This document shows, in pieces, positions 1,741-19,192 of a DNA stretch of 20,000 nt. The stretch covers positions 161,177 through 181,176 of the forward strand of contig JBNGIO010006246.1 of NCBI GenBank assembly GCA_049999805.1, given 5' to 3'. The notes below the pieces were generated by a model, which was not told where the DNA came from, did no database searches, and was given only the letters and a program-made list of their open reading frames with translations. The position numbers and the translations under genes are program-made. Every line of letters begins with the position of its first letter. Position 1 is the first letter of the stretch. This stretch comes from Folioceros fuciformis (Eukaryota).

Positions 1741-4700
1741 ATGTCTGGCGTCACAAGGATTGAGTTGAACATCGGCAAGCGTGGGGAGCCGGGCCTGCCG
1801 CACGCCCTGTACCAAGTGCTGGGCAGCAACCATTGTATCCAGACGCTGGTCACCAGCCCATTCGCTGTCATCCACTGCCTCCAAGGCTTGCGCCACCCAG
1901 ACTGCACCCTCTCCGTACTTGACTTCAATGTGCTCCCATCGTATTATTCTGCTGATGAGGCCCATGTCAGTGAGTGTTGGCTGCGCCTTGCCCAACTGCT
2001 CCCTGGCTGGAAATCATTGCGTGCCCTGCGCTTGCCTGCCAAAGTCAACGCTTCTTGCAAGAAAGAGCTCATCAGAGCTTTGGAGGGCAACTCTTCTCTG
2101 ACCAAGCTTGCCATTCGCGACTGGTCCGACGATCTCGACGATAGTCTCTTCAGAGACTTGATGCACTCCCTCCAACTCAACACCACGTTACGGGAGATCA
2201 ACGTCAAGGGCACGAGATGGGAGAGGGAGGGAAAGGCCGCCATTATCAAAACGACCTTGGCACGCAATGTTACGCAAAGTGCATACAGGCCCTTGTTTCT
2301 GGATGGGCAAGTGCCCGTGAAGCCCAGGGCCGGGCGCCTCTTCCTGTGCGGTGCGCCCTTCGCAGGCAAGGCCACTGTCCGCACCTCCTTGATCCGCGCA
2401 TGGAGACAGGAAGGCGCATCAAAGACCAAGCGCATGCAGGATGCACTGTCTCGTACTCAGCGATCATGGAAGTCTTGGGGCACTGACACCAGGACGGAAG
2501 GCATTGAAATCGAGGTGCTGCGAATGACGATCATATGCAAGTCATCATCTGGGATCTGGCTGGACAAGCTCACTACCGGGCTCTGCAAGACTACCTCTTT
2601 CCGACCTACAACCAAGCATGTGTCTTCGTCTTGGCCTTCAGCCCTTTTGATTCCCAAAGGCCTCATCAACTCCCACGGCAGGAGATGGTGCAGGACAAAT
2701 TCAAAACGAGCTTGGCGTTCTGGCTCCGTTTCATCAACTCAAATTCTCGCAATGTGGGCTCAGCGTTACCCCAAATGCTTGTGGTGGCAACTCATGTGGA
2801 TCAGATGGAGGCTTCTCAAGCTCGTGCATTACCGGATATCCTGCAACCCATTCTGACACAGTTGGCCGCCGAGTTTAAGCATATTGTCACAATGCAGACA
2901 ACAACACTCTTCTGCATGGACGCTCGATCTCCCAAGAGTGTGAAGCCTTTGCTGCACGCAGTCATGCAATCGTTTCGAGATTCATTTGAATCTGAACTCT
3001 TCTGGGTACCCGAGCTCTGCAACCGATTGAGTGCTGCCTTGACTGCCTGGGTATCTCAACATCCAGCTCAACCTCTTGTGAGGAAACGGCACCTTCAAAC
3101 ACTGTTTGACGAGGAGCTACGGCGTTTCCACAAAGCTGGTGGAGTTCCAGAGAAGGGGGTTCCACTGGAAGCCATTCTCGCCTATTTGAACGATGTAGGT
3201 AGCATCATCTGTTTTCAAGGCACAGAAATGGTGGTCATCAGTCCACACTGGATCAGTCATGGTTTTCTAGGGCAACTCATTCAGCTTCTTCGCAGACCAG
3301 ATCGGGCGTCCACGAGTAGTTTGACACAAACGTCAGATGGATTTGTTGCCAGAAGTCACCTCCATTCCACCTTGGACAAGATCGTCAAAGGCACGCTCAC
3401 GGAGGGGGTCGAACGGGAAGATCTGTTATCATTGATGACTACTCTCAACTTATGCTACGAGGAAGATTCGACTCGACGTGTCGGATTCTTTGTTCCCCTC
3501 ACCCTGAACTAAGGTGATGGTAAAACCCTTGATGGGAGACGACAGTTGACCTGGAAAGCTGATGATAAGGCCAGCATTTACAACTACCTCGGAAGAAGGT
3601 TGCAGTGCCGCGACACGACCAAGACGTTTCTTGGTCCAGGCTGTTTCCCGAGATTCCAAGTACGATAACCAACAACATATCAGAATTGGACTTTGTTTGA
3701 TGGGTGGATGGGTGGCTCTGTGTGTCTTCAACCTGTTTCATGACGTTGTGGAGGTTTGCGCATTGCAGGTCTGCCTTCGGAAGCACTTGTTTGCCGGAAG
3801 CCATGCCTTGTCACTTCATCAATCTGATCAATATCGTATCGAACGCAACCTCATTGAGATCGTGTGCGATGGTATGGTTGTGTTCCTGGAAAGCAGTGGG
3901 GATATTGGAGAGGACACCGGAGACATCGGAGATCATGTTGATATTCTGGTGAGGTCACTCAAGAGCAAAGATCAAACTTTCGAGCTTCTCAAAGAACATG
4001 TGATGGCAAAGTTGAGAGCATTTTGCTCTTCCCCTGAAGGCAGTCCGGGTGTCGAGCTTGTGGAAGGCATTATCAGGACCGAGTGCGTCGAAAACCTCAC
4101 GCCCTGTATCTATCGGCAGGACCAGTCAGTGCGAACGCAGACGTTGCTTGAGTGTGTTCTTGCAGATCCTGAAGATCCACCGGGGCAGATTTTCTCGTCG
4201 TTGGACCCAGCGGACTTCAGATGGCCGTGGCCAGCATGTCCAGGAGCCGGTTTGGAGGGAGCCTTCGAGGGAGCTAAAGAGCTCTTAACTGATGGTGAAA
4301 TGTTGAATGTCTTGCGCAAGCAACGAACAGGTCTCCTTCAAACCGTCTCCAACATCTATGCAGCTGCAGAGAATGAGATGCGCGCACGACAAGACGCCCA
4401 CCTACCAGTTCAAACTTCTGGGAATTTCCGACGTACGGTATTCGTCCCTGCAACAAGTCACTTGGAGACGTGGTTGGAAGCCATGATTAGAGATTTGAAC
4501 GATCCGGTGGAAGCAATGGGAGTTCAGCGAAATGAGTTCAGCGATATGAAGACCAAGCTGGAAGAGGCTCTACAACGTTTAGTTTCCAAGATGGATGAGA
4601 TTATGAATTTCTCAGCAGAGTTAGAGAGCAGTCAGATACCCGGACGTCCCTACTTCACGACAGCAGACGTGGGTCAAGTACAGAAACTTATTGCACATGT

Positions 4701-5208
4701 GCGTCTGGGCAAAGCGGCTAAGCTCCACTTCATGTGCGAAAACATCTCTGGGAATCATGTCGTGAAGGGCCAAACTGGATTTGAGCTGACTTTGGAAGAT
4801 GCGAAGTGGAGCTGGATCAGGCCCTTAGCGATCAACGGTGCAAAGGTATTGTCCTTCCTGACCAAGGCTGGCCTACACGTGGCGGCCGGCGTTGGGAATA
4901 TGGTTCCATATCCTTTTGGCAGCTTGGGTGAAGCGGTTTCTGTCGCTGCGAGTTTTGGGAACGCAGCCCTATCCGATTCGAATCTGGACCTGACAAGACC
5001 AGCTGTGAGCCCAACCACTTCTCTGAAAGAGGCATGGATTATTCTGAAGAATATGTTGCAGCCGTTGTTGAGGGATCACGTGGCCGACAAATTCCAATTG
5101 CACAAGGTGCACTATAGGAAGAAGCCTCACGGAGAACGAGCGGTGGCATGGGTTCGCGAACGGTGTATGCGGACGGGAATCAAGAGACAAGTCTACCAGC
5201 CGCTTTAG
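1741..5208 (+). pseudogene. TORNADO1-like LRR-ROC-COR (Roco GTPase) gene, ~1120 codons; 1-bp frameshift near 2523, in-frame TAA at 3510-3512, intron 3660-3768
   Basis: RI-type LRRs (ALEGNSSLTKLAI, SLQLNTTLREINV). ROC motifs: G1 RLFLCGAPFAGKA, G2 TRTEGIEI, G3 IWDLAGQ, G4 VVATHVD. COR-like segment follows. Reading through the stop gives the TRN1-family motif YLGRRLQC..TFLGPGCFPRFQ|V across a phase-0 GT-AG intron. TRN1-type C-terminus LHFMCE..HVVKGQ.G...AGVGNMVP...VAWV. Confidence 0.85.
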
Positions 5209-5680
5209 CGTCGACGGGAGTAACTACGACGTGGTGAGCTGAAGCCTCACGTCGGCATCTGCAGGATGGATCGAGGAGTCATCTGGAGCATCATGTGATC
5301 GGATAGGGCGAGGTAGACAGGCACATGTAGAGCCAATCCTGCAGTGTTTTGCATTGTTGTTTGCGAACGCTCACCTTTTATGAATTCGTCATTTGTGGAT
5401 TCGTCTCAGTTAGTTGTAGGATAAGGAGCTCCGTATTTTAGTTGTACATCCTTCCGCCACCGGCGCCATCCTTTCGTGGTATTGGCCTCGTAGATCGTTG
5501 GAATGAAAACGTGTTTGATGTGCAGAGCAAGCACATGCCTGCAAATTCACAGGTTTGAAAGTGGGGTGCTAGCAGCGCTACCATCAATATTTAGAAAAGG
5601 TTGAGGCTGGACCAGATACGTAGGAAGCAAGTGTCTTACCTGCAGGCCCACTTCCACCAGTGGCTGACATCTAACATGCG

Positions 5681-6795
5681 ATGCAAATCTCATTTCCTAC
5701 GACGGCTGCTGCCCCGCGAGTGTCCAGGCTGGATACGAAAGAAGCAACGAGGAAAGCCTGTGTCTGTGCCAAAAGACCACGATTGTGCTCAACAGTGCAG
5801 CAAGAATGGGAGGGGACATTTCTGGTGCATGTTGCTATGCCGTCAGCTCCAATCAACCCAAGCCGGCCGGCTTCTGGGAGTTGTGGAGACATTGAGCAGC
5901 TCTGCTCCACCTGCGGGCTATGCAGATGCCTGCCCTTCTGTACGGCACCTGCGGTTCCATATGCCTTCGGAAGGCAAGCGAAAGTAACAAACATGGTTGC
6001 CCATTACAGGGGTGTGGTCGTTCATTGTATGCACCTGGGCATCCTGGCATCGTCTGTCAATCTGTCTTACAGCTGCACCATGAGATGCGTAGGTCAGGAT
6101 GAAGGCGAATGGTCACGTCTTCGTTGCTGCGCTTCAAGCTTGCGCATTTGCCGCCAACTTGGAATCTGGCACAAAGGTGCACTGTGGCATTCCCACTGAC
6201 TCGTTTGTTGGAAACTGCGTTGTGGACATGTATGCAAAATGTGGCCAAATGAAAGATGCACACCAGGTTTTCGTCAGCATGGCCAAAAAGGACGTGGTGG
6301 CATAGACTTCCCTTAATCTATATCTGGGTATGTAAAATGTGGTGAATTGGAAGACGCACACAAGCATGAGCACAGAAGATGTGGTGACATGAACTGCCCT
6401 CATCTGGGTATGTACAGAGGCGCTTCTTGTATATGTACAAATCGATGAAGATGGCCTGATTTTGGCTGACCGTTTTACTTCTGCTTGCCTTCTGAGGCCT
6501 GTGGGAGTACTGGTGCCTTACGCAAGGGCAAACAGCTGCACTCACAGATTGTGGGAAAAGGACTGGTCGATGATGTAGGGTTGGGCAACCGCCTGGTGGA
6601 AATGTATGCAAAATGTGGTGAGCTGGAAGATGCACGCCAGGTTTTCGACAGCATGAACAGAAAAAATGTGGTGACGTGCACACCCTCATAACTGGGTATG
6701 CAACATGTAGTGAACTGGAAGATGCACGTCAGGTTTTTAAAAGCATGGACGCAAAGAACGTCGTGACTTGGAATGCCCTGATTGCCGGGTATGTA
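5681..6795 (+). pseudogene. PLS-class pentatricopeptide repeat (PPR) pseudogene, truncated
   Basis: L motifs (HVFVAALQACAFAANLESGTKVH; ACGSTGALRKGKQLHSQIVGKG) and S/SS motifs (DSFVGNCVVDMYAKCGQMKDAHQVFVSM; GNRLVEMYAKCGELEDARQVFDSMNRKNVVT; KNVVTWNALIAGYV). Several frameshifts and Trp->stop changes. No E/DYW domain in the window. The 5' limit is approximate. Confidence 0.9.
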
Positions 6796-7820
6796 ACTGA
6801 TTTCCAAGTCAAAATCAACTAAATACTTGTCCCATCTTCGTTGGCGGGGAATCAAGTAAGGCTGGGAGAAGAAATGATGCAACGAGTGGCAGTTTGTGTG
6901 GCCCACCACCTTTTGCTTGAAACAATAAGGTCTGCAGACCTTCGATGCATGGGTTGTAGCTAGCATTTATCTATGTTGTGTACGGCATTATTTATCTGGG
7001 CACCCTGTAATGTTCTTGCAGAACTCATAAGCTATTGCCCTATCCTGATGTGATAGGACGGCCCCTATTGCATAATTTGATGAATCTGTATGCAATATGT
7101 AGAGTAACTGGGGGTCTGCTACTACGAGGACTGATGCTTTACTGAGGCCTGTTCTGAGAGTGTTGAAGGCTGCCACTGCCTCTGGGCCCAGTTGTTGTAA
7201 TTGTCTCAGCGCATTCGTAAGGGAGACAACAATCTTGCTGAACCCTTGTCTGAAGCAGCAGTAGAACCCTACCATGCTCAAGAATTCACGAAGATAGGTG
7301 ATATCTCATGGCTCTAGAATCCATGAACCTAAGTGATATCTTGTGGCTCAAGGATCCATAAACCTAGGTGATATCCGGTGGCATCGGTCACTCCACTAAC
7401 GCTTTTACATTCCGAGAGTGGGCAGCCCCCCTAATGTCTAAAGCATTGATGACATGCCCAATGTACTCGCATTTCTGACCTCATAAAGAGGTACTTACTG
7501 CATTTTGCTAGCAGTTTATTTTCTCAGTTTATTTTGCTAGTACTTTTCTAACTAGTGAGTGGTGGGTTTTGGCATCCTGGATGTAAGCCAGGATGTCATC
7601 CAGCAACAAGTACTCGTACGCCAAGAGCCTCAAAATCTTCTACATCAAGCAATGGAAGGTTGCTGGTGCATTGGTGACGCCCAAATGCATGGCCAGAAAC
7701 TCTAAGAGGCCGTCTCGCATCTTGAGTGCTGTTTTGTGCTCTGACCTTCTAGAGTACTCACTACAATACTACCTTCTGATGATTAGGTCTTGACGAAGGA
7801 CCAGGAGGTGCCACCTGGTC
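6784..7820 (-). mobile_element. Ty3/gypsy LTR-retrotransposon pol fragment (RT + RNase H), degenerate
   Basis: Minus strand gives HKTALKMRDGLLEFLAMHLGVTNAPATFHCLM (RT), LLDDILAY (YLDD box), YIGHVI, FLSMVGFY..FSKI, LHTDSSNYAIGAVL (RNase H) and RQRRWDKYLVDFDLEISYIPG, with stops and frameshifts. No LTRs seen. Confidence 0.9.
7276..7382. repeat. 35-bp tandem repeat, ~3 copies, inside the gypsy pol fragment
   Basis: gtgatatc recurs at 7298, 7333 and 7368. Unit is approximately gctcaaggatccatgaacctaggtgatatcttgtg. Confidence 0.85.
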
Positions 7821-7981
7821 CTTTCTTTGAGCCTCCAGGGAACCTGAGTTCTCTGCTCCTTATTTGTTGTCTTCCCCTCCCCACACCGGAACTTCTCCCC
7901 TCCGCCCAGCCTCCCCTCCCTTCCCTCGCCTCGCTGCATCTAACGTTCGCTGACACATTCAGCCTGATCCTAGAGAGTTTT

Positions 7982-9542
7982 CTAGTAATACTCGGCCCCG
8001 TCCCACGATTTTCTGATGAGGGGAACGCCATCTTCTCGCCAGAAAATGCGGTCTTCGCAAAGCGCCGCCACAACCGCAACATACAGTTTGTGTTCCTGCA
8101 GGAAGTATTTAACACCGATATCAGTGCTGAGATATACATAGAACCATGCCGAAAAGCTTGGGAGGAGAACAGTACCTCTTTCAGCACTCTCGCAGCCAAG
8201 TCATGGGGCGTGTCATCCGGTAACACTCGCACAGTTCGTTGTGCCAGGATTGGCCCAGTGTCGTACTCCTCGTCGATGAAGTGAACGGTTGCACCTGAAA
8301 ACCTGGATATGCAGAACAAAGAGAACTAATCAAAGATGTGAGCAGTTGCTGAGGAAGCCACAACAACTCAAGAATTCGAACAAAGAGTACACGGCGTGGG
8401 GCAGAGGATTGGCTCAGACACTTTTTTTTTCATCATCCACCAGATGTCAGGCAAACTGTGAAATAGAAACAAGTCATCACAGCCAATCCTTTTCCTGCTG
8501 CACTGACTGCAAAATCGCAGAGACGTCAGAGAAATAGGATGCTGTGGGGAACACACCGAGCACCAGACTTGATAACCGCTTCATGTACTTTCATTCCGTA
8601 AAAGCCCTTCCCACCAAAAGCAGGTAGAAGCGCAGGATGGATGTTCAGTATAGACCGTGGATACGCTTGCACAAGCTCAGGAGGTAACATCCTGAGGTAC
8701 CCGGCAAGTAATATATAGTCCACACCACACGCCCTGCAGAACCAACTCTAGGGTTACTGTTTGGTCCTTGATAGAAGATCACAGCTACAGGCCCCATACG
8801 TGCTCATTCGGTTCCTGCTCAAGGAACATGAATTGAATTTAGCAGTAGAGCGTGTACAGAATGAAAAAAACGATAGACTTCCAAAGACCCACAACCAAGC
8901 AGGGCGTAAAGAAAATTAAATTTGTCACAGCTCTCCTACAGCACGACTCTGTTACAGCAAGGCAGAATCACCTCAATCTTTCCATCAGCTCACTCGACGA
9001 AATGCCATCCAAAGCGTTCTTTCCTTTAGGATACGCCAACAAGGGAATGCCGTGCTCTCTAGCATACTCACACGCTTTGCACCCTGCAAGACTCAAACAA
9101 GTCAACCATCTGCACACTCCGACAACACGGCCCCACCGGCGAACAAGCGTTACAACGATTATAGAGACGCACCTGGTCTGTCAGACACCACAAGATCCAC
9201 CTGCCCATATATCTCGTTCCTCAAAGTAGCTTCGTGCAAAGCCCGAAAATTGGAGCCACCTCCGGACACGAACACTGCCAGCTTAGATCTGAAGAAGCCG
9301 CTACCACCCACCTCTTCCTTCCCTCCCACCGTCTGAGCCCCAGTCTCCAACTTCTCACACAAAACCGGCCAAGGGGTCGCTTTCCTTCTCTCCAGCCCCC
9401 CTGAGCGCAGCGCACAACCAGAAAACACCCTCCGCCCAGCTGAACCCAAGGAAACCCGCTGTCCAGTAGCAAAACGTCTCTCGTCGTTCCACACACCAGC
9501 CCCTAGCCGCACACTGCCGGCACCAGCTCTAATACACTGCAT
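7982..9542 (-). CDS. PUR3: Phosphoribosylglycinamide formyltransferase (GAR transformylase, PurN), plastid-targeted; exons 9542-9173, 9083-8972, 8733-8557, 8302-8176, 8095-7982
   Basis: Transit-peptide-like N-terminus, then KLAVFVSGGGSNFRALH, VDYILLAGYL, ILNIHPALLPAFGGKGFYGMKVH, SGATVHFIDEEYDTGPILAQ and EHKLY..LCEDRIFWREDGVPLI. All four introns are GT-AG with consistent phases. Confidence 0.96.
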
Positions 9543-9837
9543 GACTGCCGAGCTGTGCTCTCCTCTGTTTTTTCAGCGAGGTTTGGTGGTTCCGCTGGCT
9601 CCCTTCATCTGTTGTGTCAGCTGTTCTCGGCACAGCTGACAATGGAGAAATCCTGTTAGCCCTAGACATCATGTAGACTAGGTCTACATGTGGGCAGATT
9701 CGTATTAAGAAGAGTCGTACTTCCATACCGAGCACGTTGGAAGGCGATGGTGGAGACGGGCTAGGCTAGCATTTCGTTTGTGAAAGTTTCAAACATCGAA
9801 GAAGCAGCGGCGGAACAAGAATTCTGCGAGCTGAGAC

Positions 9838-10521
9838 TCAGGGCACGTAGTCCTCATCTTCCTCATCGAACTCACTAAAATCGATATCATCCAATCGGCC
9901 AGATCCCTGCCGGTTGTTCACTCTGCCGAGGTATCCTGTGCCCTTAAAGTTTCTGAGCTCCAGCGGCCCCAGCTGCGCCTGCGACTCGCTCACGGTGATC
10001 TGGAACGAAATCTTGCTCTTCCCGGGCGGGATTTCGGAGATGGTGTCGATGCGCAGACTCTCTGCAGCATCCAGGGCGGGCTCGCCTTGGGCGTCGTAGA
10101 CTCGGCCGAAGATGTCCACATTGTACACAGGCTGCTTCATGGGGTTGAGAGCGTCTCCTGTGACTCGAAAACACCTAGCTCCAAACGACGTGCCGCCAGT
10201 CACAGTGGTCTGACCTTCGGGGCACGGCACCGGAGTTGCCTTGATTCCGGACAGAACAATCCTCACATCCGCCAGCGCTGGCCCACAGCCGCTCAGACCC
10301 GCAGCTGCTGCTCCCAGCAGAAGCAGTATCCGCCTCTCCAGATGAGCCGGCGAGCGGACTTCCGATGAGGATGACGATGCGGTTTCCTCCTCAAAGATGG
10401 CTCGGAGAGGTAAGAGCGAAGGAGGTCTCCGTTGCAGGACGGACCCTGAGGTGAAGGATGAGAAAGGCGTGCGCACTGCCGCTCGAGCTGAGGAGCAGGC
10501 TGTGGCTGGGAAGGAAGCCAT
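9838..10521 (-). CDS. Intronless 227-aa predicted thylakoid-lumen (Tat) protein with a cyanobacterial-type FxLYD-like beta-sandwich domain, function unknown
   Basis: Ser/Ala/Arg-rich transit peptide, twin-arginine signal ERRILLLLGAAAAGLSGCGPALA with AxA cleavage site, mature domain with a Cys pair (CPEG...ARCF), motifs VTGDALN..VYNVDIFGRVYDAQG and EIPPG, and an acidic tail. Confidence 0.85.
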   Translation of the reverse strand: MASFPATACSSARAAVRTPFSSFTSGSVLQRRPPSLLPLRAIFEEETASSSSSEVRSPAHLERRILLLLGAAAAGLSGCGPALADVRIVLSGIKATPVPCPEGQTTVTGGTSFGARCFRVTGDALNPMKQPVYNVDIFGRVYDAQGEPALDAAESLRIDTISEIPPGKSKISFQITVSESQAQLGPLELRNFKGTGYLGRVNNRQGSGRLDDIDFSEFDEEDEDYVP

Positions 10522-10691
10522 CGCTTCGGTGTGAGGCGCTCGATACGAAGGTGGAGGACAAGGTAGCAGGAGGAAGAGTGCTCAGAGGTTGGCTTGTATG
10601 ACGCGAGAGTGATAAAAAGCTTCATTTACCAAACGGTGTTGTGTAGACTGGCCCTCAGGGCACAAGAACGTATTCGGAAACTTGGCCAGAT

Positions 10692-11422
10692 CTAGGGGAC
10701 CTTCCGCAAGATTGCAGCAAGAATATAACTGAAAGCCGAATCAACTGTCGCCAAGAAGATGATGAGAAGAATAACCACTCCCAAAGTCAGAAATGCCATC
10801 TTCACCTGCAACACGATGAAGTGTCCCACAATCAAAACTGGGAAAGCTTCCATGGGGTTGCAAAGCGAACACCACGAAGTAGCTAAGCTGCGTAAGACTG
10901 AACGAACCATGCTGTCAAGGGGAGTGAATTCGATGTATTTGAGCTGGCCAGGTTGCTCCCAAAGGAACTGTATAAGCTCCTTACAGGATCTGAAGAACGA
11001 CAAAACACAGCAAAATTTACAGATGTGAACCAGGTGTGGAGGTACAGAGGATCGCAACAACCAGAAAAGGTGAGGATGCTGTGCCTGTATACGAACTTCA
11101 ACGCCCAAATCCAAACAGGCTGTGACTCTGGACCTTGCTGGGCACCATACTGATTAGGAACATGCTCTGGCCGCTGTCTTGTGTCATCAAAAACCCTGCA
11201 CCCTAGCCGAGACCAACCGCCTTGCCTCTTCCGGCATCCCAGGGCTCCGAAACTGCGTCCTGGCCTGAGGCCCCATGACGCTCTTGCTGTTGGACGAACT
11301 GTTCTGAGGTGACCATTTCCGGCTGAGCAAAACCTTGGGCGAAGGGAAATAGGCTGAGCTGCAGGAACAGCGAGGACAAATCTCGCGTCCCGACCGTATG
11401 AGCTTCTCAAAGCGTCCATCAT
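10692..11422 (-). CDS. SECE2: Plastid inner-envelope SEC2 translocase subunit SECE2-like; exons 11422-~11085/11097, 10989-10908, 10805-10692
   Basis: Transit peptide, then the SecE-type amphipathic helix and motif FLWEQPGQLKYIEF, and a C-terminal TM helix FLTLGVVILLIIFLATVDSAFSYILAAILRK. The first donor site is ambiguous. Confidence 0.8.
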
Positions 11423-11443
11423 GCTAGTGTGGGGCTATTGTGG

Positions 11444-11452
11444 AAACCCTAA
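11444..11452. promoter_or_regulatory. Telo-box (AAACCCTAA) in the 72-bp divergent spacer
   Basis: Exact AAACCCTAA between the SECE2 ATG (11422) and the PBAC5-like ATG (11495). Confidence 0.55.
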
Positions 11453-11494
11453 ACCTTTCCGGTAGCAAATCCGTTGAAACGGGTATTGAGCTCT

Positions 11495-12487
11495 ATGCCT
11501 CCCTCCACCATGTCTCAGGTGCTCAAGGTGGTGGTATTCTTGGATCGGACTGGATTTGAATGGGCTGAGAGTGGAACACCACGTCCAAAGGTCCACGCAC
11601 ACGAGTACGAATGCCAAACCATAACCCGTTGATGCCCTTTCTTTCCTGTCCCAATGTGCTTAGGTGGTGCTTTGCAGACTGAGGTTGGCGTATGAGAAAC
11701 ATGGCTTGTCTGCGACTGATGATCCTTTTCGGGCCGTCGATGTGACTGGGCCAGATGGGGCTCAGAAGGTACTCCTCATTCGTTCCGAGTCTCTGCAATA
11801 ATTTCTCCTCGTCTGTACCTCTGAAAGCAAGTTTCTGTTTGTGTGTTGACAGTTCTTGTTGTTCGATTGTAGGCACTTGTCATCTACGCTGTGCACGAAA
11901 TTCCGTGGTCTGGCTGCATCAACTGGCTTGACATACTCTTTGATTATTTGTTGAAGACTGTAGTTTGCATGCAGTCGCGAGAGTTTGCTCTGATCGTTGC
12001 TGGTTATGTTCCCATACCTGTTAATCACCGGGGTGGAGCAGTGAGCCTCGTTCATGAGGGACTCAGTCGAGACGGTGTGCAAGTCCTGTTGGCAGAATTG
12101 AATGGATCAGGTGAAGCGTCGAAAGGACTTTTCGGGGAACTACCGCGGGCGCCTCTGGACTTCCCACTGAACGACGAGTTTCTGGCATCGATTGTGCACG
12201 TGGCTAGAGTGATGCAGGTGCCTACAGTTCTGCTGCTTGCCGCTGAAAGTGAGGAGCATTCTGAGGATAAGGTAATTCCCAAGAGTGGTCCATATGCGTC
12301 TGCCCCTTTTCTAGGTCTCGTTGCAAATCTCCCCTTGTCTGATTCACATCGTGCAAATCAGGATGCTGGGGACACTTCTGGTCTGGCCATCATCCTCCAA
12401 AAGCAGCTTGGAATTCCTGTACGACGAGTTCCCCTGAAGATTCGGCGCGCAAATTCAGTCGGGGAATGGAAGGCTCTGTATATCTGA
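11495..12487 (+). CDS. Putative PBAC5-like 20S proteasome assembly chaperone; exons 11495(or 11510)-11590, 11664-11768, 11873-12271, 12362-12487
   Basis: The spliced product begins MSQVLKVVVFLDRTGF and contains LRLAYEKHGL and EFLASIVHVARVMQVPTVLL. It ends EWKALYI*, a C-terminal HbYX motif, recalling Arabidopsis At3g07640/PBAC5 (..WRALYG). Introns are phase 0, GT-AG. Family call is from memory. Confidence 0.65.
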
Positions 12488-12714
12488 AGTTGTGATCGAC
12501 TCTGGGAACGATTTTGTGGAGGAGCAATAGTAATATATATGGATTACTCAAGAGAAACGTCAGAATGCTACCGGTATAGTAAAGCAAGAGTTAATTGCCA
12601 AACTCAGGTCACAGCAGGAAATACTCAAAAGAAGAAATTCTGACAACGCAAAAACAGACCTCTGTTGCCTGGGTAGCAACTGGACACAGGTAACAGTGCC
12701 AGATGGCAGGAATT

Positions 12715-15700
12715 TTACAACAAACTTACATAAATGGCTAGCATGATAGCCGGAAGCAAAACAGGTAATTCTAAGCTAGTAGCTCCACTTGGGGGTGCCG
12801 CAGGAGGAGGCACAGGGGACGGAGGAGGTGGTAGTACCTGGGCGCCATTAGGAGGCAACGGGGTTGCTGGGATAGGAGGTTCAGACACATTAACGAGGGG
12901 CACGGAAGAGGGGGTAGGTACTGGTGCTTTCGTCACATTTAATGCGAAGTCGTAGAGCTGTCCAGGAATGACAGACTGGATTGTGTAGTTTGATAAAGAA
13001 GATAGCAAACCTCCCTGCTGCACAGGGGCATAGCAACTTTGACCTGCAAGTCCGGATGTCGCGAGTGAGATAGTTGTGAGTGCTATACACTGAAAAATCA
13101 TATACAAAATCTGTAATAAGAGAAGGTTGATGGAGGCTCACGCAAGAAGGCAGCCAATGTTGCTGGGTAATCCGTGATGAAGCCGCTCACGTTGTAGTAC
13201 TTCGTCAAGGTATTGAGCTCCCTTGCAGGATCTGTCTCATAGTCGAAAGCAATCACAGTAGGGTCATTCCTCTGAACACTCACGTAAACAGTGAGACCTT
13301 GTTGCAGAGCATCTTGGACAACAGTTGTCGGTCCTGCCAGAAAGTTCTCAAAGACAGGGTCCAAGGGCTCCACCAACTGAGTCTTGGTCAAAGTTACTGC
13401 ACTTGCAAAGCTCTTGATCTGCTGCAAAGCTGCCACAGTTACATTCGCCGCAAGTAGTACTTGCGAGGCCACTTTGATCTTGTAGACTCGTTCGTAGGAA
13501 GGAAGAACCTGCTGTAGCCTCTTCAGAGCAGAGCTGTCCTCAGACTGCAAAAGAACTCGCTGTGTGGAGTTGCTACCATCAAACCCTGCCTGCTTCAGGA
13601 CAGCCACAACTGTGTCGACAGCATTGAGACCAGCCTCTGTTGCAAGAAAGTAGGCATTCTACAGGACAACAGAGCCCCTACGGTTAGCTCCTAGTTATAA
13701 CACAAACCAATCCGTATGTCTCACAAGCAATCGCTTGAAGTGCTACCTGGATATCAATAAAGATTCCTGTGCTCGAATGGTTCTTGGCGAGGTCCAGGAA
13801 GGTCGAGAGCGTAATGATCCCTTCAAGCCCATCATAAGCCGGATTCCTCACCACAGGAAACACCGGGTTACTTTGCTTCACTGAAAATTTGTGCAATCCA
13901 TGGTCAGGGTGGATGAATCACGAGAGCACGAAACCATCAAAATGACACACACCCAGCTGGGAAAAGGTGGGACATAAGCCCATCACCAACGAATCCAAGA
14001 TAGGCATCGGACCTCACCATCCAGCTGACTGATTTCGCTCCATGTCAAATTGAACGTAAACACACCTGGACCACGTTGCAAGGCTTCTATAGTACTGGAC
14101 CTGGAAAGCAGGTCAATGTACTTGCTCACATCGGTGCTGGGAATAAGGTCGGGTGATTCGTGACATATAGCAACACCATCCTTGGTAAGCTGCACTTTAC
14201 AATCGATGTAATCGGCTCCATCCCTTACAGCTGCCTCATAAGACATCACAGTGGACCCAGGGAAATCGCCACTGGCTCCGTTATTAGATATGATGGTCCG
14301 CTTAACAGCCGAGGGACTTAGTGGAGTTTGCCCTGCAGCATCCAAGGTAACTCAGAGAAGGAAAGGAAGCCTGAGCCCACGGAGCACAAGTTGGTGAGAG
14401 AAACGAACTGCTTGCTGACCTATTTGCAACGCCGCGGACGAACCACCCGATGCATAGCAAGCTGTTATCACGTACAAGCAGTGACGCTCCGAGTCAGGCG
14501 GTGGTGTACAAGAAGCCGCAGTCCAATACAAGAGGTACACATAGTCTTGAGAAGCGAACTAAACAGCAAACAAGACATGAATGTCTCACCCAATGCCTCA
14601 GACGCAGTTGTAGGGAAATCTGTGAGGAGACCGTCGGGGGCGAAGTCGCCATTGGCTACAAAGTTAATGTACTCCCTGAGAGGGTCGTAACTGTAGTTGT
14701 AGCTGTAGGGATTCTCGTCATTTGCAAAGACACCAGTGTAGACAGTGAGATTTGCATTGTGGTAGTCCGACACGATGGTGGTGGGTGACGTCAAGTACAG
14801 AGTCTGGGAATCCACCGGCCATATTGCATCCTTGGGAACAAGCACTCCTGAAGAGAAGTTGGCAATCTCTTCCACAGTGAAGCTGGAGTACGTCCTATTG
14901 GTAGATGGCTCCACTGCATCCAGGGAAGGGATCTTAAAGATAAGCTTTGTGGCAAGTTGACGGGCAATGCTCCCGAGACTCTTGAGCAACGCCACTTCCG
15001 TTGCTGAAAAATAGGATACCGAGCGAGTGTTGAGTGCAGATACTGCGGAGGCGGTCACATTATACCCGTTCTGCTCGTAGAACAAAGCATACTGTGGAAA
15101 GCACGGAGGTCAGTTCTCAGGCGGTGTGGAGAAAAACCCACGACCCGAATTCCACGCAGCTCACTGCTGTAATCCTCACCTCCACGTTGAGCCAGAGGTA
15201 TGCTGGATTCCCAGTTTGAGCTGTGAAGCTATCCAGCAGCTGGACGACATCTAAAGGAGTTATGATCGGAAACAGATAATCGAACGCGTTGGTTCGAGCC
15301 AAGCTGCTCTGAGCAGCTGCGTCGCAGAGGCATCCAGACACACAGCATCAGGAAAGCACTGCAGCGGGAGTCGGAAGGGTACTATGTGGCGAGACGTGAT
15401 GGGCACTCACCGCTGATGCTGAGGAAGTCCTGGGAGGTTTTATCGATGGAGAAGATTGCAGTGACATTCACCCCGTTCACCTCCCGCGTCGTGACGTTGT
15501 TGTCGAGAACCAAGGAGGTGCTGTTCCGGAGATCAAGGCCGGTCCGGCAGATGGCCGCCGAGTCCGCGGTGAGCTGCACATCGCAAAAGAGAGCGATGCC
15601 CGGCAAGGAATCCGTAAGCGCGAAAGAGTAGGCCCACGCCGTCTGATCGGGGAACAGACCGGACGACCCACCACGGGCAATGATCAAGGGAGCCGCACCT

Positions 15701-15941
15701 GCGCAAGCAACAAAGACCCACAATCACAAGATTACAGCGCCAAGCGCGCGCAACGCTCCACCCTACCGCCCATCACCAGCGGAAGCGTACCTGACAGCGT
15801 CTGCCATTGCGACGCAGATGAGTTCTGCGCCAGACCCAACACCGGCAGCAGCAGCAGCAGCTGCAGAAACAAGAGCGGCTGCAACTGCAGCTGCCAGAAG
15901 ACGCGTCGGTCCTCCCGATCCATGGGTGTTGCCCTCCACAT
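12715..15941 (-). CDS. GDPDL: Glycerophosphodiester phosphodiesterase-like protein (GDPDL/SHV3 family), signal peptide + two GDPD domains + GPI-anchor signal; 9 exons: 15941-15791, 15698-15411, 15316-15180, 15091-14590, 14461-14420, 14332-14018, 13880-13747, 13658-13142, 13043-12715 (805 codons)
   Basis: Motifs WQTLSG..PLIIARGGSSGLFPD, FCDVQLT.D, YLWLNV, YNYSYDPLREY, DGLLTDFPTTAS, IISNNGASGDFPGST, IDCKVQLTKDG, VLLQSEDSSAL and GFITDYPAT. Pro-rich stalk and hydrophobic C-terminus. Exon lengths sum to 2415 nt with consistent phases. Alternative start ATG at 15923. Confidence 0.95.
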
Positions 15942-19092: not shown

Positions 19093-19192
19093 NNNNNNNN
19101 NNNNNNNNNNNNNNNNNNNNNNNNNNNNNNNNNNNNNNNNNNNNNNNNNNNNNNNNNNNNNNNNNNNNNNNNNNNNNNNNNNNNNNNNNNNN
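19093..19192. other. Assembly gap (100 N)
   Basis: Run of exactly 100 N, which suggests a placeholder gap of unknown size. Sequence is strongly AT-rich after it. Confidence 0.99.

Follow-up and report, generated by a model that had tools for sequence, protein, structure and literature searches.

A disabled TORNADO1-type Roco gene in Folioceros fuciformis, from the hornwort/liverwort branch of its family

We analysed a stretch of 20,000 nucleotides of Folioceros fuciformis DNA (assembly GCA_049999805.1, contig JBNGIO010006246.1, forward-strand positions 161,177 to 181,176), hereafter referred to as the window. Its positions 1741..5208 on the plus strand hold a disabled gene for a Roco protein of the TORNADO1 (TRN1) family, which we term the window copy and which was delimited with the open reading frame (ORF) track, tblastn and a read-through translation. 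The gene extends from an ATG at 1741 to a TAG at 5206-5208 and consists of two exons; its 1119 codons, read through with an X placed at both breaks, give a protein of 1119 residues. The ORF track contains three long open frames on this strand (1708-2856, 2508-3512 and 3550-5208). A preliminary description of the locus had joined the three into one protein of about 1120 amino acids. While this length was correct, the joins proved to be a 1-nt deletion and, further downstream, an in-frame TAA together with a GT-AG intron.

The joins were located by tblastn with eight homologues, comprising seven full-length proteins and a partial hornwort protein. With all seven full-length homologues, the alignment leaves frame 1 and continues in frame 3 at 2520-2529. 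In four of them (P0003, P0151, P0012 and P0006), consecutive residues flank base 2523 with no residue missing, and since these four align in this manner, one base has been lost and no intron fits. The resulting frameshift, a 1-nt deletion at 2521..2523 (+), is positioned between the Roc motifs G2 and G3, where the window reads CTG CG- AAT GAC and four other Roc sequences carry C[GC]CAAC.

The second lesion is a TAA at 3510..3512 (+), located at the border between COR-A and COR-B. The residues neighbouring it align with the homologues in the same frame, and those past it (GDGKTLDGRRQLTW...YLGRRLQCRDTTKTFLGPGCFPRFQ) stay in the middle frame, in alignment with both the hornwort protein and the remaining family; this identifies the TAA as a premature stop. 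Finally, removal of a 109-nt GT...AG intron at 3660..3768 (+) leads from the middle frame into the third frame. Splicing joins FPRFQ to VCLRKHLF, and the hornwort homologue has QVRLRNKLF at this place. At 3550-3659 the coding frame differs from the third open frame, which had been taken as coding throughout, wrongly for this segment. An intron spanning the frameshift or excising the TAA was ruled out, as no homologue residues are lost from the alignment on either side. In hornworts, U-to-C RNA editing is an organellar process. Editing of the TAA was ruled out as well, the gene being nuclear and the frameshift being beyond repair by such a process.

The read-through protein starts with an RNI-type leucine-rich repeat (LRR) region (residues 1-187; 1741..2301, +), which was assigned from an AlphaFold model and Foldseek. 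The model of the N-terminal 260 residues, based on an alignment of 40 rows, displays about six strand-helix repeats with a mean predicted local distance difference test (pLDDT) score of 80.1. It gave 43 Foldseek matches in the PDB at E≤0.001; the matches listed are largely LRR proteins and include RNI-type ones, namely tropomodulin/leiomodin, CARMIL, NLRP1/3/9, NOD2 and ribonuclease inhibitor. Pfam LRR models gave zero matches to this N-terminal region. By the fold model, RNI-type LRRs are present N-terminal of Roc and form a shorter array than in the long family members. The region measures about 190 aa, and homologues align from residue 100-108 of the window copy onwards, with 385-650 residues of their own ahead of the aligned part in the long forms, in agreement with the short LRR region of the preliminary description. 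When 63 N-terminal pieces of homologues were searched against the sequence upstream of 1741, no match was better than E 0.65. The short LRR region may represent natural variation and not a truncation, because annotated short forms exist in liverworts (1025-1101 aa) and in Ceratodon (1031-1186 aa).

The Roc GTPase domain occupies 2329..2860 (+), its outer limits being approximate, and was placed by Pfam and motif alignment. Alignment with the family positioned its motifs on the plus strand: G1 (GAPFAGKAT) at 2350-2376, G2 (TEGI) at 2494-2514, G3 (WDLAGQ) at 2550-2567 and G4 (THVD) at 2790-2801. The frameshift splits the domain, and for this reason the Pfam score, obtained for the middle piece (E 3.3e-4, 21.3 bits), stays below the cut-off of 27 bits. 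Within the TRN1 family, the Mg-binding Ser/Thr site of the P-loop is variable. The window copy reads AGKA where the family consensus is AGKT; since Ipomoea TRN1 has Asn at this site (AGKN), the Ala after GK may be tolerated.

The COR domain follows directly after Roc, although the COR-A score and the COR-B fold are each borderline when taken alone. COR-A (3108..3497, +) matches PF16095 at E 1.2e-7 with 32.2 bits, below the cut-off of 35.3. The first and third pieces of the gene yielded no credible Pfam domain. COR-B (3513..4305, +), which is interrupted by the intron and contains LGRRLQC at 3588-3608, was assigned by structure alignment to 3dpu_B. The model used for this alignment spans the last 479 residues and drew on 57 rows (pLDDT 79.4). 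Model residues 1-179 had the COR-B residues 807-940 of 3dpu_B as their top match in VIA-align (Z 7.9, root mean square deviation (rmsd) 2.7 Å, 129 aligned residues).

Two further parts close the protein. A long helical bundle at 4318..4629 (+; model helices 175-287) corresponds to what had been called a coiled-coil; its model residues 184-287 found generic spectrin-like matches only, with Z up to 7.6 in VIA-align. It is followed by an alpha/beta domain conserved in the TRN1 family (4636..5205, +), which was delimited from model residues 290-479 and the family alignment. This C-terminal domain retains LHFMCE at 4723-4740 (LH[LF]MCE in the family) and a Gly/Ala-rich helix, AGLHVAAGVG, at 4867-4896. 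With its conserved motifs kept and a match to 'protein TORNADO 1 [Ipomoea batatas]' at E 2.6e-20, the module is of the TRN1 type, so that both the module and the LRR-Roc-COR domains proposed in the preliminary description were recovered. The fold of the C-terminal domain was searched within the 479-aa model as a whole, which gave no Foldseek match at E≤0.001 and no usable ESM Atlas match, and for which the VIA-align rows fell mostly on COR-B and the helical bundle.

We conclude that the window copy is, in all likelihood, a recently inactivated member, pseudogenised or a null allele, of the hornwort/liverwort branch of the TORNADO1-type Roco family. Judging from the family, the ancestral protein would have been an intracellular GTPase switch, built in the order of a short RNI-type LRR, a Roc G domain, COR-A, COR-B, a helical bundle and the conserved C-terminal domain. 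An intact Roco reading frame is absent from the window copy, being interrupted by the deletion at 2521-2523 and the TAA at 3510-3512. Authentic reading ends after 260 residues at the deletion, and translation from the ATG would lead to a 371-aa product that retains the LRR and P-loop and ends in 111 out-of-frame residues. This copy cannot work as a Roco GTPase, and it cannot itself serve as a sensor.

The state of the remaining sequence speaks to the age of the inactivation. Defining a conserved residue as a column where at least 80% of the other rows agree, we found 80 of 86 (93%) kept in the read-through protein, which is mid-range among the 57 rows (0.74-1.00). The decay recorded in the preliminary description consists of a single frameshift and a single stop. 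With nearly all family-conserved residues kept and just two disabling lesions present, the inactivation appears young, and the gene looks like a young pseudogene, or a null allele.

To follow the lesions into the reads, we compared four of the six sequencing runs listed for this stretch with the window. Contigs of X1, a DNA run, cover 1400-2579 and 2550-4454, and those of X2 cover 2347-2704, 2678-3461 and 3442-3642; in both runs, we counted 0 differing letters and 0 gaps. Both lesions and the intron are present in these contigs rebuilt from reads, at a word depth of about 8-10.

Several observations weigh against a recently inactivated gene. X1 and X2 come from a single sample, possibly the one behind the assembly, so that their agreement rules out a consensus artefact but covers no independent individual. 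Apart from the two lesions and the Thr-to-Ala exchange in the P-loop the gene looks intact, which would fit a null allele that is intact elsewhere too, and the Ala itself need not be a defect, given the GKN at the P-loop of Ipomoea TRN1. Furthermore, X3, which is from another sample and whose RNA nature is a guess, gave a 710-nt contig identical to 4792-5500, and the 3' end may still be transcribed.

One alternative is that a truncated product still acts, either as an LRR-only decoy or regulator of intact paralogues, or that the locus gives a regulatory transcript. Such a role would draw on the ATG, LRR and P-loop, which remain open for 260 authentic codons, and on the possibly RNA-derived contig over the 3' end. 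However, no RNA run is on record for this stretch (X3 gave 4792-5500 and short paralogue-like pieces only), hence there is no sign of a product, and the 111-residue out-of-frame tail speaks against a shaped one. We consider a functional truncated product very improbable.

Still less probable, in our estimate, is a gene that is intact and working, with both breaks being errors of assembly or consensus. The low number of lesions (two in 3.36 kb of coding sequence), the 93% of conserved residues kept and the sample shared between the DNA runs and the probable assembly source would all be compatible with such errors. On the other hand, the contigs of the two runs match the window letter for letter at both sites at the depth given above, the deletion site, between GCG and AAT, lies outside a homopolymer, and the stop arose by substitution, not by an indel.

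Further Roc sequences were found in the same organism. Within these runs, short contigs resemble the window over the G3 region alone (2535-2594), at 90-98%, and diverge from it thereafter. Four distinct loose-end sequences, at 2522, 2535 and 2546, were read by eye and translate in frame to LRNDDEMEVTI, EIEALRNDQE, LPNDHDMEIT and LRNDDEKVVT. Where the window has CG-AAT, all four display CGCAAC or CCCAAC, and since they carry the base that is missing in the window, the identity of the lost base is known. Three of these Roc sequences come from the DNA sample and one from X3, which brings the further Roc sequences in the organism's runs to at least four. In X1, the bin over this region reached a depth of 92, compared to about 10, and a 53-nt contig had a depth of 94; these values, which are not a copy number, hint at a motif common to several copies.

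To place the window copy within its family, we performed an exhaustive HMMER search with its last 481 residues as the query. This search retrieved 161 library proteins at E≤0.001, 95 of them at ≤1e-10 and 18 at ≤1e-30. The best match was a transcript product of the hornwort Nothoceros aenigmaticus (605 aa, 41% identity), followed by liverwort proteins of 1400-1630 aa; over 512 columns, the Nothoceros transcript and the window copy are 42% identical. When 38 long homologues were scanned with Pfam, 25 gave a Roc match, 31 matched the Roc and/or the COR model and 7 matched nothing. The assignment to the TORNADO1 family is sound, though the Roc and COR domains are near the Pfam limits.

The search also returned a cluster of 25 members from metagenome records (P0008; JGI/IMG, ENA and NCBI), 280-830 aa in length, which contain the TRN1-type C-terminal module (E 2.3e-38) and are probably plant or algal DNA in metagenomes. 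The source record of one member of this cluster names it 'negative regulator of replication initiation'.

The family is multi-copy. Three look-ups and one search together yielded 16 MpXg locus names in Marchantia polymorpha, among them neighbours with near-zero divergence: the end branches of Mp4g13145/13150 measure 0.009 and 0.013, and those of Mp8g15075/15140 measure 0.005 and 0.012. The same sources name five loci for Riccia sorocarpa, while M. paleacea and Ceratodon have four each and Chara braunii has two; in the tree, the two Chara rows form one clade with two further rows. Two proteins have an unusual composition: P0070 (Riccia fluitans, 1704 aa) combines NB-ARC, LRR, a COR-B-like part and an alpha/beta hydrolase, while P0106 (2310 aa) combines Roc with two hydrolase-type matches. 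Such shuffled compositions point to an exchange of domains between genes of the Roco and NLR types in liverworts. The alpha/beta-hydrolase domain is also found N-terminally in some liverwort NLRs.

Two trees, both unrooted and with a single angiosperm row, were computed from these sequences. The FastTree tree comprised 57 rows and 990 columns, after leaving out 7 near-duplicate or isoform rows and rows that did not span residues 260-980. In this tree, the window copy is sister, with a support of 100, to a group of 33 rows, the named ones of which are all from Marchantia or Riccia. The IQ-TREE tree (LG+C20; 925 columns) comprised 28 rows, of which 26 were taken from the 57 and two were partial proteins. 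Here, the window copy pairs with the Nothoceros protein (SH-aLRT 96), and this pair groups with one Logan protein and ten liverwort rows with a support of 99. A split supported at 98 separates the hornwort/liverwort side, together with the liverwort group of Mp7g08800, from Ipomoea TRN1, Pteridium, ferns, Ceratodon and Chara. Forcing the window copy, the hornwort protein and the Logan protein together with Ipomoea TRN1 and Pteridium lowered the log-likelihood by 96.25 and gave p 0.0013 in the approximately unbiased (AU) test, the tested group having been named after the tree was seen.

These results bear out two proposals of the preliminary description. The placement in the trees, the 16 Marchantia loci and the at least four other Roc sequences support the view of the window copy as a diverged paralogue from a multi-copy family. 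Likewise, the tree with TRN1, which had been suggested there, supports that the window copy is not of the angiosperm TRN1 type, with the reservation that it is unrooted. That the gene is instead the TRN1 orthologue of this organism, a developmental gene of low copy number that merely looks diverged, is the least probable of the alternatives, since the Roc-COR-C-terminal architecture and the C-terminal module (E 2.6e-20) common with Ipomoea TRN1, and unrooted trees in which the whole hornwort/liverwort branch could be co-orthologous to TRN1, are met by the 98-supported split between the two, by the AU test against the TRN1 clade, with the caveat on its group given above, and by a broken gene accompanied by other Roc paralogues in the same runs, such breakage being unexpected in a low-copy developmental gene.

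We then compared the window copy, as a recently inactivated branch member, with known systems. It shares with TORNADO1 (TRN1/LOPPED1) of flowering plants the RNI-type LRR, Roc, COR-A, COR-B and the conserved C-terminal module, and Ipomoea TRN1 aligns with the window from 2065 to 5169. It differs in having only 23-31% identity, in its position on the other side of the 98-supported split and in the length ahead of the aligned part, which is about 100 residues compared to about 400 in TRN1. Moreover, TRN1 is described as present in one or two copies (PMC11378527), whereas the hornwort/liverwort branch is multi-copy and the window copy is broken.

Further counterparts are liverwort Roc-COR proteins annotated as 'hypothetical' (Mp1g27080, Mp5g17320, Mp8g15055/15075/15140, and proteins of Riccia and Marchantia paleacea). 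They belong to the same branch with a support of 99-100 and have the same architecture, with 27-33% identity over Roc-COR. Unlike the window copy, they are annotated as intact, and the nearest relative of the window copy is the Nothoceros hornwort transcript.

Another comparison concerns the candidate immune receptors of the LRR-ROCO type in brown algae, described in PMC11378527 as an expanded family of LRR-bearing Roc-COR proteins with a receptor role proposed on genomic grounds. The likeness concerns the expanded LRR-bearing Roc-COR family, and the comparison was made at Roc-COR only. In contrast to that unrelated lineage, the LRR of the window copy is encoded in one exon, without exon-per-LRR shuffling, and the protein carries a TRN1-type C-terminal module. 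Prokaryotic Roco proteins (PDB 3dpu/3dpt, a RocCOR tandem of the Chlorobium type) share the COR-B fold at the values given above (Z 7.9, rmsd 2.7 Å over 129 residues), but show 12% identity and are without the TRN1-type C-terminal extension.

The surroundings of the gene are mixed. Downstream on the plus strand, three open frames in two reading frames at 6093-6822 contain PPR repeat fragments (Pfam), and this stretch looks like a decayed PPR gene. It includes 90-nt direct repeats at 6210, 6584 and 6676 that are 66-80% alike. On the minus strand, a reverse transcriptase (RT) RNase H fragment occupies 6988-7305 (PF17919, E 1.5e-11); after it come three tandem units of 35 nt (7276-7382). The upstream 1-1700 is AT-rich, with 37% GC compared to 52% in the coding sequence. 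Among its 9 open frames (71-1545), no Harbinger or other Pfam domain was found, the best E of 0.04 being far below the cut-offs. A contig of X4 differs from 1400-1619 in 21 letters, 15 of which are G>A; this segment is probably repeated elsewhere in the genome, the X4 contig looking like a second, transition-ridden copy of a repeat.

Beyond this debris, frames matching ordinary gene families are found at 7783-15723 on the minus strand and at 11873-12487 on the plus strand, corresponding to a formyltransferase (7783-9572, -; PF00551), DUF7894 and a multi-exon GDPD-like gene. A 227-aa ORF at 9841-10521 has moss, fern and lycophyte proteins as its best named relatives (64-81% identity), and an assembly gap of 100 N is located at 19093-19192. 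In the flanks, the PPR and RT RNase H fragments were confirmed, but not the Harbinger debris listed in the preliminary description. Nor is the region rich in transposable elements as a whole, because frames of ordinary gene families lie downstream, from 7.8 kb onwards.

In public sets, we found TRN1-family Roco proteins in Chara, mosses, ferns, a hornwort and liverworts. A full-text literature search, the scope of which ended at subscription journals and supplements, found no paper on Roco genes in bryophytes, and none of the papers listed for 'TORNADO1' is about a bryophyte Roco family. The main text of the Marchantia pangenome paper, the part of it considered here, does not contain the terms Roc, COR, GTPase or TORNADO.

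On its own, the locus is an ordinary dead gene, and its value is mainly that of a pointer to a little-described expansion of a gene family. It is possible, although we regard it as doubtful, that the hornwort/liverwort branch of TORNADO1 constitutes a bryophyte-specific repertoire of intracellular LRR-Roc-COR sensors that undergoes NLR-like turnover by tandem duplication and pseudogenisation, the present locus being one of its casualties. Such a repertoire is hinted at by the near-identical neighbours in Marchantia, by a broken copy beside intact-looking paralogues and by the NB-ARC and hydrolase fusions of P0070 and P0106. A role of the branch as immune receptors is an attractive idea, not a result. 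If the branch were indeed a receptor repertoire, it would add to the intracellular sensors of early land plants a second class, based on a GTPase.

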